Positions 12,699 to 25,617 of a stretch of 64,000 nt of DNA are shown here, piece after piece (the stretch's first letter is position 1; the number at the start of each line of letters is the position of its first letter). Both the position numbers and the translations under genes were made by a program. Where the stretch lies: positions 1 to 64,000 of the IMG/VR virus record IMGVR_UViG_3300023179_003528; one strand, 5' to 3'. Source of the stretch: a virus. The notes beneath the pieces are model-generated. The model worked only from the letters and a program-made list of their open reading frames with translations, was not told the DNA's origin and ran no database searches.

Positions 12699-12881
12699 AG
12701 TAATAAAATAGTTAGGTTACCAAAACTCCGTCCGGACATGCCTCTTGACTATTGGGATGCTAGATTCCAACAGGCAGATCCAAATCGCTACCATCAATTT
12801 AAGAATAAAACACCAGAAAAGAAAAGTCAAATGGCTGTAGCTGCTCTAAAACAGGCTAGAGAGAAGCCAAGAAAAGTTTGA
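12639..12881 (+). CDS. -1 frame extension (80 aa) of the 10630 protein
   Basis: Open -1 frame VSEQEPLAPIDP...KLRPDMPLDYWDARFQQADPNRYHQFKNKTPEKKSQMAVAALKQAREKPRKV* fills an otherwise empty gap. Confidence 0.7.
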   Translation, partial: VSEQEPLAPIDPTDNTQAPASNKIVRLPKLRPDMPLDYWDARFQQADPNRYHQFKNKTPEKKSQMAVAALKQAREKPRKV

Positions 12882-12906
12882 CATTATTAATTTAAGATTG
12901 TATCAT
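12878..12906 (+). promoter_or_regulatory. Sigma70-type promoter
   Basis: TTGACA, 17 nt, TATCAT; AAGGAG SD follows. Confidence 0.8.
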
Positions 12907-12925: not shown

Positions 12926-13201
12926 ATGAGTAAAGCATTTGGCGCCCCTGAACAGGCTAAAATTAAACAGATTGTAGCCGAAGGTGTTACAGTAATGCAG
13001 GAAATTCAAGACCTAACTGAGGGTTTAAATGACACAATTAAAGCAGTAGCTGAAGAACTAGAAGTAAAACCTAGTGTAATTAAACGAGCAATTAGAATTG
13101 CACTAAAAGATCAATGGAACCAAGTTTACAAAGAATTTGATGATTTAGAAACCATTGTTAATATCAGTGGTCACGCAAATATGCGTGACGATGAAGAATA
13201 A
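12926..13201 (+). CDS. Small helical DNA-binding protein (T4 DsbA / GapR-like)
   Basis: 91 aa; EIQDLTEGLNDTIKAVAEELEVKPSVIKRAIRIA pattern; strong SD. Confidence 0.55.
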   Translation: MSKAFGAPEQAKIKQIVAEGVTVMQEIQDLTEGLNDTIKAVAEELEVKPSVIKRAIRIALKDQWNQVYKEFDDLETIVNISGHANMRDDEE

Positions 13202-13219: not shown

Positions 13220-13272
13220 AAGGTTCAGCAAGCCACAAATTGCTATTCGAAGGTCAGTGAGCCATAAATCAC
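13220..13272 (+). promoter_or_regulatory. Tandem structured leader motifs upstream of DNA polymerase
   Basis: Two copies of AAGGT(T)C-stem-GCCAYAAA-stem; second abuts the AAGGAG SD. Confidence 0.6.
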
Positions 13273-13284
13273 AAGGAGAAGAAT

Positions 13285-15954
13285 ATGAGCTACGTAGATG
13301 CCATCTGGGATCGAGAACAAGACACCGTTCGTGTGGTTGAACGCGATAATAAAAAAGGTCGTTTATTTCAAGATTACCCTGCCAAATATATTTTCTACTA
13401 CCCTGATCCAAAAGGCAAATATAAGTCTATTTTCGGAGAAAGCCTTAGTAGAGTCTTATCAAGAAATTTTAAAGAATTTGTAAAAGAACAAAAAATTCAT
13501 AGTAATCATAAACTTTATGAAAGTGATATGAATCCTGTATTCCGTTGTCTAGAGGAAAACTATCTAGGCAAGGATGCACCAAAACTAAACGTAGCATTTT
13601 TCGATATCGAAGTGGGGTTTGACCCAGATCGTGGATATGCGTCGCCAGATGATGCATTTATGCCTATCACTGCTATAGCAGTTCATCTACAATGGTTAGA
13701 CACATTAGTATGTCTCAGTGTGCCACCTAAAACACTTACTTTAGAACAGGCACAGGAGCAGGTAAAGGATTTTCCTAACACACTATTATTCGAATCAGAA
13801 TATGAAATGTTGGACACATTTCTTACCTTAATTGAAGATGCAGATGTATTGAGCGGATGGAACTCAGAAGGATATGATATTCCATATACGGTTAATCGTG
13901 TGACAAAGGTATTAAGCAAAGAAGATACTCGGAGATTTTGTCTATGGGATCAGTATCCAAAAAAACGTGAATATGAAAAATATGGTAAAACTGCCCTTAC
14001 TTACGATCTTGTTGGTCGTGTCCATGTTGATAGTTTGGAGTTGTACAGAAAGTATACATATGAGGAACGACATTCCTATAGATTGGACGCAATCGGCGAG
14101 ATGGAAATCGGAGAAACCAAAACTGTATATGAAGGAACTTTAGATCAACTTTATAATAATGATTATCGTAAGTTTATTGAATATAACAGGCAAGATTGTG
14201 CCTTGTTAAACAAATTAGATCGCAAACTTAAATTTTTAGATTTAGCCAATACAATTGCACATGAAAATACTGTTTTACTACAGACCACAATGGGCGCGGT
14301 TGCTGTAACAGAACAAGCAATTGTAAATGAAGCGCACCATCGAGGCATGATTGTTCCAAGTCGTCCTCGTAGAGATGAATCTAGAGACAATCAAGCAGCA
14401 GGTGCTTATGTAGCATATCCTAAAAAAGGACTACATGATTGGATTGGATCAATGGACATTAATTCACTGTATCCATCGGTAATTCGTGCTCTTAATATGG
14501 GTCCTGAAACTATTGTAGGACAATTGCGTCAAGACTACACACAGGCCTATATTGAAGGCGAAATGGCCAAAGGTAAAAGTTTTGCGGCAGCATGGGAAGG
14601 ACGTTTTGGATCTCTCGAATATGAATTCGTAATGAACAAGGATCGTGCTAACGACATTACCATAGACTGGGAGAATGGTGAAACTTCAATAATGAGCGGG
14701 GCTCAAATCTATGAACTTATTTTCGACAGTAGTAAACCTTGGATGTTATCTGCCAATGGCACAATCTTTACACACGAACACGAAGGCATCATTCCCGGAT
14801 TACTTAAACGCTGGTATGCGGAACGTAAGGAAATGCAGGCTAAACTTAAAGAAGCTGTCAAGGCAGAAAACAAAATTGAGGAAGAGTATTGGGATAAACG
14901 GCAATTGGTTAAGAAAATTAATCTTAATTCCTTATATGGTGCTATTCTTAATGCTGGTTGTAGGTTTTTCGACAATCGTATCGGTCAATCTACCACACTT
15001 ACAGGACGCCAGATTGCCAAACATATGGCTAGTAAAATTAATGAAGTCGTCACTGGAGAATACGACCACGTTGGAAAAGCAATCATATACGGAGATACAG
15101 ACAGTGCCTATTTCTCAGCCTACAGTAGTCTCAAAAACGAAATCCAAAAAGGTCAAATTCCGTGGGACAAAGAAACAGTTGTAAAACTTTATGACAATGT
15201 AGCAGAAGAAGTTAATTCAACATTCCCACAATTCATGCTAGAAGCATTTCATTGTCCCAAGAGCAGAGGAGAAGTTATTAAAGCAGGTCGTGAAATTGTA
15301 GCTGCAAAAGGATTGTTCATAACTAAAAAGCGTTATGCTGTATTGTATTATGACAAAGAAGGCAAACGGTTAGACATCGAAGGTAAGCCTGGAAAAATCA
15401 AAGCCATGGGGTTAGATTTGAAACGCAGCGATACTCCAGAATTCATGCAGGACTTTCTCAGTGAAGTTCTAGAACGTGTGCTAAATGGTGCAAAAGAAAA
15501 AGAGATTCTAGAACGTATACAAGAATTTCGAACAGAATTCAAAGCACGACCTGGATGGGAGAAGGGTTCGCCAAAACGTGCTAACAATATTACAGAGTAT
15601 CAAGAAAAAGAAGCCAAAGCAGGTAAGGCTAACATGCCTGGACATGTCCGCGCCAGTATTAATTGGAATACTCTCAAGCGTATGCACGGAGACAAATACA
15701 GTATGCAGATTGTAGATGGTATGAAGGTCATAGTATGCAAACTTAAATCAAATCCTTTGGAATATGCTTCAGTGGCCTATCCTGTAGATGAACTTAGGTT
15801 ACCCAAATGGTTTCAAGATTTACCATTCGATCATGCAGAAATGGAAACAGTTATTATTAATAACAAACTGGAAAACCTAATCGGTGTTTTGGAATGGGAT
15901 TTAGAATCTACCACAGATACTAATACATTTAATAGCCTGTTCAGTTTTGAATAA
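13285..15954 (+). CDS. polB: Family B DNA polymerase (gp43-like)
   Basis: ExoI FDIE, ExoII GWNSEGYD, ExoIII YNRQD; motifs DINSLYPS, KINLNSLYG, YGDTDS; no intein seen. Confidence 0.97.
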   Translation: MSYVDAIWDREQDTVRVVERDNKKGRLFQDYPAKYIFYYPDPKGKYKSIFGESLSRVLSRNFKEFVKEQKIHSNHKLYESDMNPVFRCLEENYLGKDAPKLNVAFFDIEVGFDPDRGYASPDDAFMPITAIAVHLQWLDTLVCLSVPPKTLTLEQAQEQVKDFPNTLLFESEYEMLDTFLTLIEDADVLSGWNSEGYDIPYTVNRVTKVLSKEDTRRFCLWDQYPKKREYEKYGKTALTYDLVGRVHVDSLELYRKYTYEERHSYRLDAIGEMEIGETKTVYEGTLDQLYNNDYRKFIEYNRQDCALLNKLDRKLKFLDLANTIAHENTVLLQTTMGAVAVTEQAIVNEAHHRGMIVPSRPRRDESRDNQAAGAYVAYPKKGLHDWIGSMDINSLYPSVIRALNMGPETIVGQLRQDYTQAYIEGEMAKGKSFAAAWEGRFGSLEYEFVMNKDRANDITIDWENGETSIMSGAQIYELIFDSSKPWMLSANGTIFTHEHEGIIPGLLKRWYAERKEMQAKLKEAVKAENKIEEEYWDKRQLVKKINLNSLYGAILNAGCRFFDNRIGQSTTLTGRQIAKHMASKINEVVTGEYDHVGKAIIYGDTDSAYFSAYSSLKNEIQKGQIPWDKETVVKLYDNVAEEVNSTFPQFMLEAFHCPKSRGEVIKAGREIVAAKGLFITKKRYAVLYYDKEGKRLDIEGKPGKIKAMGLDLKRSDTPEFMQDFLSEVLERVLNGAKEKEILERIQEFRTEFKARPGWEKGSPKRANNITEYQEKEAKAGKANMPGHVRASINWNTLKRMHGDKYSMQIVDGMKVIVCKLKSNPLEYASVAYPVDELRLPKWFQDLPFDHAEMETVIINNKLENLIGVLEWDLESTTDTNTFNSLFSFE

Positions 15955-16008: not shown

Positions 16009-16743
16009 ATGAAAGACATTTTACAAGACATCGTTGGACATACAAATAAATTAGGGTTCCTTAATATTGTCAAGGTTACAGGAACTAAAGACAAGACACA
16101 AATCGACTCGATGGCAGAAGATAGATCTGTAATCATGCATGCCGAAACTGCTGACCCGTATCCAGATATGATTGGTACATTTGGTATGCCTCAACTTGAA
16201 AAACTACGCTATCTATTAGATGGTAAGGAATATCAAGAAGATGCTAAAATTGAATTAACCACAGCGGTTCGTAATAATGAAACTATTCCTATTGGACTTC
16301 ATTTTGAAAACAAAGATGGCGACTTTAAGAATGACTACAGGTTTATGAACCAAGATCTTATCAACGAAAAACTTAAAACAGTTAAATTTCGTGGAGTTAA
16401 ATGGGATGTAGAAGTTGAGCCAAGCATTGCTTCTATACAAAGATTTCAATTTCAAGCAGGTGCTAACACAGAACATACTATATTTTTAGCCAAGACAGAA
16501 GATAAAAAACTGGTATTTACTTTCGGTGATGCTTCCACACACGGTGGAGAATTTGTATTTGCCACAGATGTTGTAGGCAAGTTAAACAAGGGATGGACTT
16601 GGCCTGTATCTCCAATTCTCAGTATTCTTAAGATAGCAGATACAAATAATACAAAAATGAGTTTTAGTAATGAAGGTGCCATGCAGATTACACTAGATAG
16701 CGGACTGGCTACCTACCAATATATTGTTCCAGCCCAGGCATAA
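16009..16743 (+). CDS. Putative sliding clamp (gp45/PCNA-like)
   Basis: 244 aa next to polB; two-domain size; C-terminal GAMQITLDSGLATYQYIVPA resembles clamp terminal strands. Confidence 0.55.
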   Translation: MKDILQDIVGHTNKLGFLNIVKVTGTKDKTQIDSMAEDRSVIMHAETADPYPDMIGTFGMPQLEKLRYLLDGKEYQEDAKIELTTAVRNNETIPIGLHFENKDGDFKNDYRFMNQDLINEKLKTVKFRGVKWDVEVEPSIASIQRFQFQAGANTEHTIFLAKTEDKKLVFTFGDASTHGGEFVFATDVVGKLNKGWTWPVSPILSILKIADTNNTKMSFSNEGAMQITLDSGLATYQYIVPAQA

Positions 16744-16758
16744 TGATATTGAGTTGAA

Positions 16759-18312
16759 ATGAAAAAACCACCAATTAATCTAACACCGTTACAAAAAGAC
16801 TATGCGGTTTTTCTTCCCGCAATCTCGTCGTTCTACAGTACCTATGTGGCAAAACAACGACTAGAAGAATTTGTTCCAACAGATCGAATTCCTAAAGATT
16901 TCGACCGTGGCATTGAGGGTATGAACTTTCTCAATCCCGAGGAAGGCTATTTTACCTATAAATATGCGCTATATTCAGCAGGTCATGCTCAATTAGATCT
17001 GCAAAAAAGTCTTGTTCAAGAATCTATGATCCAACAGAGGGATCGCAATGCCACAATGATTTTAGGTGATTCGGGAGGATATCAAATTGGTAAAGGTGTT
17101 CTAAAATTTGATTGGTTAAATTTTGAAGGTGCAAAAGCCAACGCTGTTAGACAGCAAATTCTAGAATGGTTAGAACTAACTGCAGACTGGTCCATGTTTT
17201 TAGATGTGCCAACTTGGGCCTGTGATCATATTCATAGCCCAAAAACAGGACTTAAAACTTTTCAAGATTGTTTAGATAAAACTCGTTTTAATAATGAATA
17301 TTTTTTAAAGAATAGGCTGGGACAAACAAAATGGCTTAATGTTCTGCAAGGTAGCGATTGGGATAGCGCAGAAGAATGGTATGATGGTGTTAAAGAGTTT
17401 TCAGATCCTACTGTATGGGAAGATCGAGCCGCAGAAGGGTGGGCCTTTGGAGGTGCCAATATGTGTAAAATGGACATCACCCTTAAAAGATTAATCACTA
17501 TGCGTGAGGATGGATTACTTACCAATAAAAATTGGATTCACTTCTTGGGCACCGCTCAATTAGATTGGAGCTGTTATCTTACCAGTATCCAAAGGCAAAT
17601 TAGGAAACATATCAATGAAGAAATTACCATATCTTTTGACTGCGCCTCACCGTTTATCGCAACAGCGCATGGACTCGTCTACACCAATGCCCAGCACACT
17701 CAAAAACGTTGGAGCGTTATTATGGACAAAGCCCCAGACCTCAAAACTCTTGCAGGAAGCGATATCCCATTCCCATTTGAATCAGAACTAGGACGCAGAA
17801 TGACCATGGGAGATATTTGCCATTATGCTCCTGGTATGCTAAACAAAATTGGTAAGGAAGGTAAAACTTCTTGGGATAGTTTTTCATATGCTCTAATGAT
17901 GGGTCATAATGTCTATTGCCATATTGTTGCTGTACAACGTGCTCAACAGTTGATGGACATTGAAGTTGCTAAAACTAAAGGAAAAATTCGCTGGCGTCAT
18001 TGGAAAAAAGTCAAAGCAGATGATAAGAGTGACGAATATTCAGAATGGGTTCCACGTAATATCTTATATTTTAACAATTTTGTAGAAGATCTATTCAATA
18101 CCAAAACTAAACAAGAAGCATTCAATATTATGGATGAGGCGGGTCCTTTTCTAAGATCGTTGGAAGGAGCAAGGCTGCGAGGAGGTCCTGCTCAAAATAC
18201 TTTTAATAGACATTTTGATGTAGAAGAAATCACCAAAGCAGTAGAAATAGATTTGGAAAATCCCGAAGATGAAGAACTTAGGAAATTGGAAGATAGTCTT
18301 CTTGACAGTTAA
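16759..18312 (+). CDS. dpdA: DpdA-type (TGT-fold) DNA guanine transglycosylase
   Basis: GDSGGYQ, LDVP, LNVLQG, GWAFGG, IHFLG and SFDCASP motifs of the TGT barrel; adjacent to Que-pathway genes. Confidence 0.8.
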   Translation: MKKPPINLTPLQKDYAVFLPAISSFYSTYVAKQRLEEFVPTDRIPKDFDRGIEGMNFLNPEEGYFTYKYALYSAGHAQLDLQKSLVQESMIQQRDRNATMILGDSGGYQIGKGVLKFDWLNFEGAKANAVRQQILEWLELTADWSMFLDVPTWACDHIHSPKTGLKTFQDCLDKTRFNNEYFLKNRLGQTKWLNVLQGSDWDSAEEWYDGVKEFSDPTVWEDRAAEGWAFGGANMCKMDITLKRLITMREDGLLTNKNWIHFLGTAQLDWSCYLTSIQRQIRKHINEEITISFDCASPFIATAHGLVYTNAQHTQKRWSVIMDKAPDLKTLAGSDIPFPFESELGRRMTMGDICHYAPGMLNKIGKEGKTSWDSFSYALMMGHNVYCHIVAVQRAQQLMDIEVAKTKGKIRWRHWKKVKADDKSDEYSEWVPRNILYFNNFVEDLFNTKTKQEAFNIMDEAGPFLRSLEGARLRGGPAQNTFNRHFDVEEITKAVEIDLENPEDEELRKLEDSLLDS

Positions 18313-24771: not shown

Positions 24772-25617
24772 ATGAAAAAACTTAAGGTATCAGAACTTTT
24801 TTATAGTATACAAGGAGAAGGTCGCTACATGGGTGTTCCTTCTATATTTTTACGGGTATTCGGCTGCAATTTTACCTGCGATGGATTTGGAATGCCTAGA
24901 GGAGAACGATCAAATGAACGGAACTTGGTTGCAAATAGCATTACAGAGTTTAAGCAGTATAGAGATTTACCACTTGTTCATTCCGGTTGTGATTCTTACG
25001 CTAGTTGGGATCCTAGGTTCAAAGACTTTTCACCACTACTTACAACAGATGCCATTGCGGAATCGATTAGAGAACTTCTTCCGTTCAAAAAATGGAAGAG
25101 GGAACATCTAGTAATCACAGGTGGAGAGCCATTACTGAGTTGGCAACGCAGTTATCCTGAACTGTTAAATCATCCCTATATGGATGATCTAACAGAAATT
25201 ACTTTTGAAACCAACGGAACTCAAAGACTTCATGAGGATTTTAAACTATATTTGGAATTATGGTCTAATAGAACAGACAGAGAAATTACATTCAGTGTCA
25301 GTGCCAAACTTCCAGGTAGTGGTGAGAGATGGGAAGATGCAATTAAACCTGATGTTATCTGCGATTATGAATCAGTGGGTTGGACTTATCTCAAGTTTGT
25401 GGTTGCCACGGAACAGGATATTAAGGACGCTCTTAACGCTGTAATCGAATATCGCAATGCAGGATTTAAGGGAGAAGTCTACATGATGCCGGTTGGTGGT
25501 GTCGAAAGTGTTTATAGTCTAAATAATAAAAACGTGGCCTTGGCCTGTATGGAACACGGACTAAGATACAGTGATAGACTTCAGGTGCCACTCTTCAAGA
25601 ATGAATGGGGTACGTGA
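24772..25617 (+). CDS. queE: 7-carboxy-7-deazaguanine synthase (radical SAM)
   Basis: SELFYSIQGEG, FLRVFGCNFTC...GCDS (third Cys after an insertion), TGGEP, FETNGT; GAGG SD. Confidence 0.9.
   Translation: MKKLKVSELFYSIQGEGRYMGVPSIFLRVFGCNFTCDGFGMPRGERSNERNLVANSITEFKQYRDLPLVHSGCDSYASWDPRFKDFSPLLTTDAIAESIRELLPFKKWKREHLVITGGEPLLSWQRSYPELLNHPYMDDLTEITFETNGTQRLHEDFKLYLELWSNRTDREITFSVSAKLPGSGERWEDAIKPDVICDYESVGWTYLKFVVATEQDIKDALNAVIEYRNAGFKGEVYMMPVGGVESVYSLNNKNVALACMEHGLRYSDRLQVPLFKNEWGT

Follow-up and report, generated by a model that had tools for sequence, protein, structure and literature searches.

Tandem covarying pseudoknots next to the Shine-Dalgarno sequence of a family B DNA polymerase gene in uncultured freshwater phages, a candidate translational operator

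The family B DNA polymerase gene (polB) of an uncultured virus is preceded by two small H-type pseudoknots arranged in tandem, and this leader element is a well-supported structured RNA that is absent from Rfam. It was found in a 64,000-nucleotide (nt) stretch of DNA, positions 1 to 64,000 of IMG/VR record IMGVR_UViG_3300023179_003528 (referred to here as the window), which is part of a 76-kb viral record from lake/freshwater metagenomes that is about 20% complete. The encoded polymerase, PolB, is a homolog of T4 gp43 (25% identity, E value of 1e-55). By comparison of sequences and by analogy with T4 gp43, the element may be a translational operator that acts in cis on polB, with the polymerase itself as the most likely binding partner, a reading that we favor and hold tentatively.

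The element lies in the 83-nt spacer between polB and an upstream open reading frame (ORF) of 91 amino acids (aa), the stop codon of which ends at position 13201. Read directly from the window, unit 1 is AAGGT-TC-AGCAA-GCCACAAA-TTGCT (positions 13220 to 13244), and unit 2 is AAGGT-CA-GTGA-GCCATAAA-TCAC (positions 13250 to 13272), with a linker of 5 nt between them. The first-pass annotation of this DNA, made from the letters alone, had described two copies whose stems differ in sequence and still pair and had placed the end of the second directly before the AAGGAG Shine-Dalgarno (SD) sequence; the window agrees on both counts. The composite pattern AAGGT..GCCAYAAA has two matches in the window compared to 0.03 expected, and both are in the polB leader. 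The bare loop 8-mer alone showed no enrichment in the window.

Both units recur in all of the close relatives examined, amounting to 144 distinct IMG/VR leaders (148 distinct candidate leaders were collected, 4 of which were spurious). They are likewise present in 80 out of 80 loci (L001 to L080) that were fetched by the PolB protein alone and share 81 to 88% protein identity with it. Covariation was counted in 67 distinct polB leaders, all of them retrieved by way of the protein only. First, 88% of the stem cells in these leaders pair compared to 72% in shuffles, and there are 212 double-change cells compared to 80, a number reached in 0 of 500 shuffles. Second, when the stem partners were slid by 1 to 3 columns, only 25 to 46% of the cells pair. 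Third, RNAalifold finds both hairpins unaided, with double changes at nine of the nine predicted pairs; in unit 1 they occur at all five stem pairs, and the stem pairs of unit 2 covary as well. Fourth, positions 2, 4, 6, and 7 of the loop are invariant, in line with the conserved 8-nt loop that had been claimed. Finally, the eight inner stem pairs contain 24 G:U cells compared to 1 nonstandard cell. This means that the strand that folds is the sense strand, i.e., the mRNA. The first-pass annotation had named homologous polB leaders as the place to look for conservation and covariation, and both are found there.

The loops and the bases upstream of the stems covary too, as expected from the earlier proposal that GGT pairs with the loop GCC to form an H-type pseudoknot. 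IMG/VR was scanned for the commonest unit 1 stem with the loop triplet left free, and 75 of the 76 distinct sequences recovered were polB leaders. The triplet was GCC in 66 of these, with GGT or GGC as the partner, and GCT in 9, with AGT as the partner each time. At a fixed offset in the 148 candidate leaders, the partner:loop combinations of unit 1 were GGT:GCC in 107, GGC:GCC in 12, AGT:GCT in 9 (plus 1 shifted by one base), and GGT:ACC in 3, and no incompatible combination occurred among them. In unit 1, therefore, the loop GCU is found only with the partner AGU. The GCT state needs at least six changes on the PolB tree. A good illustration is the pair L100 and L138, which have identical PolB N termini, yet their leaders differ by the double switch. 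Unit 2 was scanned twice, with both partner and triplet left free. The first gave GGT:GCC 59 times and GGT:ACC 3 times, with GGT invariant (62/62), and the second gave GGT or GGC with GCC in 62 type-A matches; the double change AGT:GCT was found in L380 and L401. The resulting geometry is that of a classical H-type pseudoknot, with a helix 1 of 3 bp, a loop 1 of 1 to 3 nt, a helix 2 of 3 to 7 bp, no loop 2, and an A-rich loop 3 of 5 nt. The 7-bp stems, seen in some relatives, take in the first bases of the SD. A minimum-free-energy alternative, in which GGUUCA of unit 1 pairs with UGAGCC of unit 2, was rejected because it is specific to the window and is contradicted by the covariation, AGU tracking loop 1 and not loop 2. 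The two loops keep a fixed spacing of 27 to 30 nt, which suggests that the pair of units is read as one object.

The element is also specific to polB. A tandem covariance model gave one match in the window at 62.6 bits, the next being at 13 bits, and one match in each of five large related records. A single-unit model hit the polB leader only, in five records that include a 383-kb genome rated 100% complete. Candidate extra copies, with covariance-model matches of up to 17 bits in the window and nine other records, were rejected, since they fall in coding DNA and have none of the motif features. Rfam 15 gave no match over the whole window at gathering thresholds and none on the leader at E values of up to 10, preQ1-I included, so that the Rfam check suggested in the first-pass annotation returned no family; ten sister-clade loci likewise gave no Rfam match at E values of up to 5. 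A full-text search of the literature turned up no account of this element.

The gene upstream of the leader varies among relatives and may be the 91-aa ORF, one of about 97 aa, or one of 205 to 215 aa. The stretch TAAATA-N11-GGY..polB stays constant despite the changing upstream gene, and TAAATA stands 11 to 12 nt before GGY in 97 of the 144 relatives, whatever that gene is. Across the window, TAAATA lies 6 to 45 nt upstream of 14 of 59 gene starts compared to 0.99 expected. Examples are at 16009, 20760, 28466, 50632 (minus strand), and 59299 (minus strand), and they include minus-strand genes that look structural; polB is an exception in having about 75 nt between TAAATA and the ATG. The box resembles the T4 late TATAAATA box and, from its sequence and placement, is probably a phage promoter of the T4-late kind. 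If TAAATA is a promoter, the motif would lie at the very 5′ end of a dedicated polB transcript. A sigma-70-like promoter, TTGACA-17-TATCAT (positions 12878 to 12906, plus strand, 11 of 12 matches), was also seen upstream of the 91-aa ORF. No terminator separates this ORF from polB, and this candidate promoter would also read through the leader.

Outside the close relatives, the element takes a simpler form. Lakes and other fresh waters supplied more than 580 matching viral contigs in each of two PolB searches, and the element is present in a large share of the leaders examined. Environmental clades whose PolB is about 60% identical to that of the window are mixed, with many members lacking any leader. 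Of their 117 distinct leaders, 69 have one unit only, of the form GGY-N2-3-stem-GCCAYAAN-stem. The 3′ strand of the stem takes in the start of the SD (cGGAG) in 48 of these 69. The single-unit stems pair in 99.7% of cells and show 99 double-change cells compared to 28 in shuffles (66 leaders), and the helices are very short, 3 plus 3 bp. Upstream of the sister-clade unit is a different covarying hairpin and then CAUGAAUCA. For instance, the L452 to L531 leaders (about 75 nt before polB) contain, in order, TATAA(A/G)TA, a small 5′ hairpin, CGAGUCG, a hairpin X, CAUGAAUCA, and a lone pseudoknot unit that is fused with the SD; hairpin X is covarying, with a stem of 4 to 5 bp and a loop of about 7 nt. 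The motif was not found in the cultured relatives Phosso (52% PolB identity), Atu_ph07 (46%), Vibrio phage 2.275.O, CBB, 121Q, and XaC1 (about 43% for the last three). The Rak2-like phages CBB, 121Q, and XaC1 (loci L094, L095, and L096) have instead a G+C-rich hairpin followed by a T run, terminator-like, 40 to 80 nt before polB.

On a PolB tree rooted on CBB, 121Q, and XaC1, the twin-unit clade is sister to a clade that holds the single-unit and leaderless forms, and about 13 switches between having and lacking the unit occur within the latter. Judged from this tree, the unit is repeatedly lost in lineages other than the clade of the window. The pattern implies that the SD-proximal unit is the ancestral core, that it was doubled in the clade of the window, and that the element is dispensable. 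The first-pass annotation had called the element duplicated, and a sister clade carrying a single unit fits that description.

A tiny pseudoknot at or in the SD, its occurrence before a single gene, and the fixed spacing of the loops together point to a control of translation initiation exerted by whatever keeps the fold closed. In the mechanism that we propose, the 5′ leader of the polB mRNA forms the two pseudoknots in tandem, the upstream GGY of each unit being paired with RCC, the opening triplet of the loop. The hairpin stem would stack on the GGY:RCC helix, whose groove would accommodate the remaining, A-rich loop bases (AYAAN). The second pseudoknot ends at the SD, or in relatives contains it, and holding the fold shut would block ribosome loading. 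The likeliest holder would be DNA polymerase that is not engaged on DNA, in which case the outcome would be autogenous translational repression through a doubled, pseudoknotted operator. The first-pass annotation had offered either a duplicated autogenous operator or a small, previously undescribed ligand-sensing RNA controlling polB; of that interpretation, the evidence bears out the structural part, with tandem covarying hairpins/pseudoknots directly before the SD of a gp43-like polB.

The precedent invoked there was correctly cited. The gp43 proteins of T4, RB69, and RB49 repress their own mRNAs through a leader hairpin next to the ribosome-binding site (RBS), and the operator loop bases UAAC or UAAA matter for binding (PMC3014915). 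The element resembles these operators in position, since each adjoins the RBS in a leader that belongs to a gp43-type family B polymerase gene. It also resembles the T4 gene 43 hairpin, AGCCU-AAUAACUC-GGGCU, in format, with a stem of about 5 bp (5 bp in T4) and an 8-nt loop. A YAA core with important A's can be read in both loops. However, it differs from the T4, RB69, and RB49 operators in consisting of two units, each with a covarying 5′ partner. Loops in the clade of the window hold AYAAN with an invariant AA, and their register and flanks differ from those of the T4 and RB49 operators. Some T4 relatives do not autoregulate gene 43 (PMC3014915), and the roughly 13 changes between having and lacking the unit, with repeated loss, fit an accessory regulator. 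A second T4 element, the leader pseudoknot of gene 32, is alike in being H-type, in the leader of a T4-type replication gene, and in autogenous regulation (PMC3014915). It is unlike the polB element in lying far upstream of the RBS, where it nucleates cooperative binding along an unstructured leader, and it belongs to another gene and has another sequence. That a polymerase could bind such a fold has an artificial parallel. The nucleic acid cleft of human immunodeficiency virus type 1 reverse transcriptase reportedly accepts a small RNA pseudoknot readily, as seen with ligands from systematic evolution of ligands by exponential enrichment (SELEX). Those ligands are, however, artificial, concern another family of polymerases, and play no part in regulation.

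Several points weigh against binding by the polymerase. First, the gene 43 operators are single hairpins without a pseudoknot (PMC3014915). Second, the loop GCCAYAAN is not alignable with the T4 AAUAACUC or the RB49 GUAAAU loop, so the element is probably an analog or an independent invention and not a demonstrable homolog. Third, the RNA fold by itself could account for each conserved base. Fourth, a small pseudoknot that takes in the SD is a classic small-riboswitch design. Finally, the leader and its single units are not significantly more stable than shuffles (z scores of −0.5 to −1.75). Since the folding energy is unremarkable, the support for the structure is comparative.

The fourth point leads to a tandem mini riboswitch, in which each pseudoknot of about 25 nt would bind a small molecule (a nucleotide or deoxynucleoside triphosphate [dNTP], a 7-deazapurine precursor, or an ion) and close the helix next to the SD. 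We consider this unlikely, though likelier than the other alternatives. The layout is that of the preQ1-I riboswitch (RF00522), a very small H-type pseudoknot with a short first loop, an A-rich loop 3, and the SD in the 3′ strand of helix 2. The conserved bases are few and invariant, and helices as short as those of the sister clade should need a stabilizer. A QueE-like gene lies 11 kb downstream, and tandem arrangements occur among riboswitches. However, the likeness to preQ1-I ends with the layout. Helix 1 has 3 bp here and 5 in preQ1-I, and the gene context is polB here and queuosine genes there. Moreover, preQ1-I holds its ligand-pairing C in loop 2, whereas in the window the stem joins the RCC triplet directly, leaving a loop 2 of 0 nt and no segment for such a C. 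Neither did any Rfam family match, even at the most permissive cutoff, and polB is the only gene that the motif precedes, whereas a riboswitch class is usually shared by several types of genes. The supposed DpdA gene nearby has no sequence match either. The fuller version of this idea, in which each unit is a self-contained aptamer and the tandem makes polymerase synthesis depend on a metabolite, for instance a dNTP or the precursor of a modified base, we regard as improbable.

Two alike hairpins with conserved loops that stand just before the SD and are read together are known from the Escherichia coli thrS operator and from guanidine-II (mini-ykkC) RNAs. Tandem alike hairpins before the SD are thus common to both and to the leader in the window. 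The loops of thrS and guanidine-II are, however, anticodon-like or ACGR, there is no pseudoknot with a 5′ partner, and the regulated genes are unrelated. The ACGR tetraloops of guanidine-II compared to the 8-nt GCCAYAAN loops here, together with the lack of an Rfam match, place the element outside that family.

A factor-free structure would dispense with any ligand. The pseudoknots would set a low, fixed level of polB translation and/or shield the 5′ end of the transcript from decay, and with TAAATA as the promoter, the motif would indeed begin about 5 nt from the start of that transcript. Each conserved base can be assigned a role inside the fold. However, the fixed loop sequence, the fixed spacing of the units, and the strict position of the SD exceed what simple protection or damping needs, and the stems are weak, which makes this explanation rather unlikely.

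[quoted passage not shown] The T4 regA gene is directly upstream of gene 43, and the conserved, helical 91-aa protein precedes polB in all 80 of the close relatives. A general repressor should, however, have several targets, whereas the motif is unique in a complete genome. The 91-aa protein was itself rejected as the trans factor because it is universal, being equally present in CBB and beside leaders without the RNA unit, and its predicted structure gave no informative fold match. A role at the level of DNA, as a protein-binding direct repeat, hairpin promoter, or origin, is very improbable: the units do form direct repeats with a period of about 30 bp (roughly three helical turns), but the stem sequences vary freely while pairing is kept, G:U is tolerated on the sense strand only (24 versus 1), and pseudoknot covariation makes no sense for duplex DNA.

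The coordinates of the element and of the genes around it are listed in Table 1. The 91-aa protein occurs in the sister clades and in CBB (CBB_262, 31% identity) as well as in the close relatives, and similarly sized ORFs occupy its slot in 121Q, XaC1, Phosso, and Vibrio phage 2.275.O. Its AlphaFold model (predicted local distance difference test score of 87, all-helical) had no Foldseek match in the PDB at an E value of ≤0.001. In most of the L001 to L080 loci (e.g., L004, L009, and L024), the polB leader is separated from the 91-aa gene by a small gene of about 97 aa whose product ends in ..GMLANYxLLxxIDxxGLIRML; this insert is absent in the window, L077, and L078. Downstream, a 517-aa protein proposed as DpdA has no match in Pfam, PHROGs, NCBIfam, or PDB sequences, and the QueE-like protein scores far below curated cutoffs. 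These sequences point weakly at best to a 7-deazaguanine pathway or context.

Table 1. Coordinates of the polB leader element and of neighboring genes in the window
Feature	Position	Strand	Remarks
91-aa all-helical protein, phrog_12534	12926-13201	+	Conserved neighbor of polB
TAAATA box, candidate T4-late-type phage promoter	13205-13210	+	11 nt upstream of the first GGU
Unit 1 pseudoknot helix S1 (helix 1), 5′ strand GGU	13222-13224	+	Pairs with loop bases 13232-13234
Unit 1 hairpin	13227-13244	+	Stem AGCAA/TTGCT, 13227-13231 with 13240-13244; loop GCCACAAA, 13232-13239
Unit 1 loop parts	Within 13232-13239	+	GCC, 3′ strand of S1; ACAAA, loop L3 (loop 3)
Unit 2 pseudoknot helix S1, 5′ strand GGU	13252-13254	+	GGT or GGC in scan matches; AGT with loop GCT in L380 and L401
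Unit 2 hairpin	13257-13272	+	Stem GTGA/TCAC, 13257-13260 with 13269-13272; loop GCCATAAA, 13261-13268; ends at the SD
SD AAGGAG (13273-13278) and polB start codon (13285-13287)	13273-13287	+	No gap between unit 2 stem and SD
polB, family B DNA polymerase, 889 aa, T4 gp43 homolog	13285-15954	+	PF00136 and PF03104
517-aa protein, proposed DpdA/tRNA-guanine transglycosylase fold	16759-18312	+	No Pfam, PHROGs, NCBIfam, or PDB sequence match
281-aa radical S-adenosylmethionine protein, QueE-like	24772-25617	+	Several QueE models, E value of 3e-16, far below curated cutoffs

Translational control of the replicative polymerase is known experimentally only from T4-type phages, and these findings suggest that it recurs, in a more elaborate form, in uncultured jumbo phages. 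The natural series of leaders with no, single, or twin units offers a way to study how operators arise, double, and get lost. At 25 to 60 nt and with natural compensatory mutants at hand, the element is easy to test, and either a polymerase-binding pseudoknot or a mini riboswitch would be useful. If the aptamer explanation were true, no smaller natural riboswitch class than these units would be known, and giant phages of lakes would be using it in tandem.
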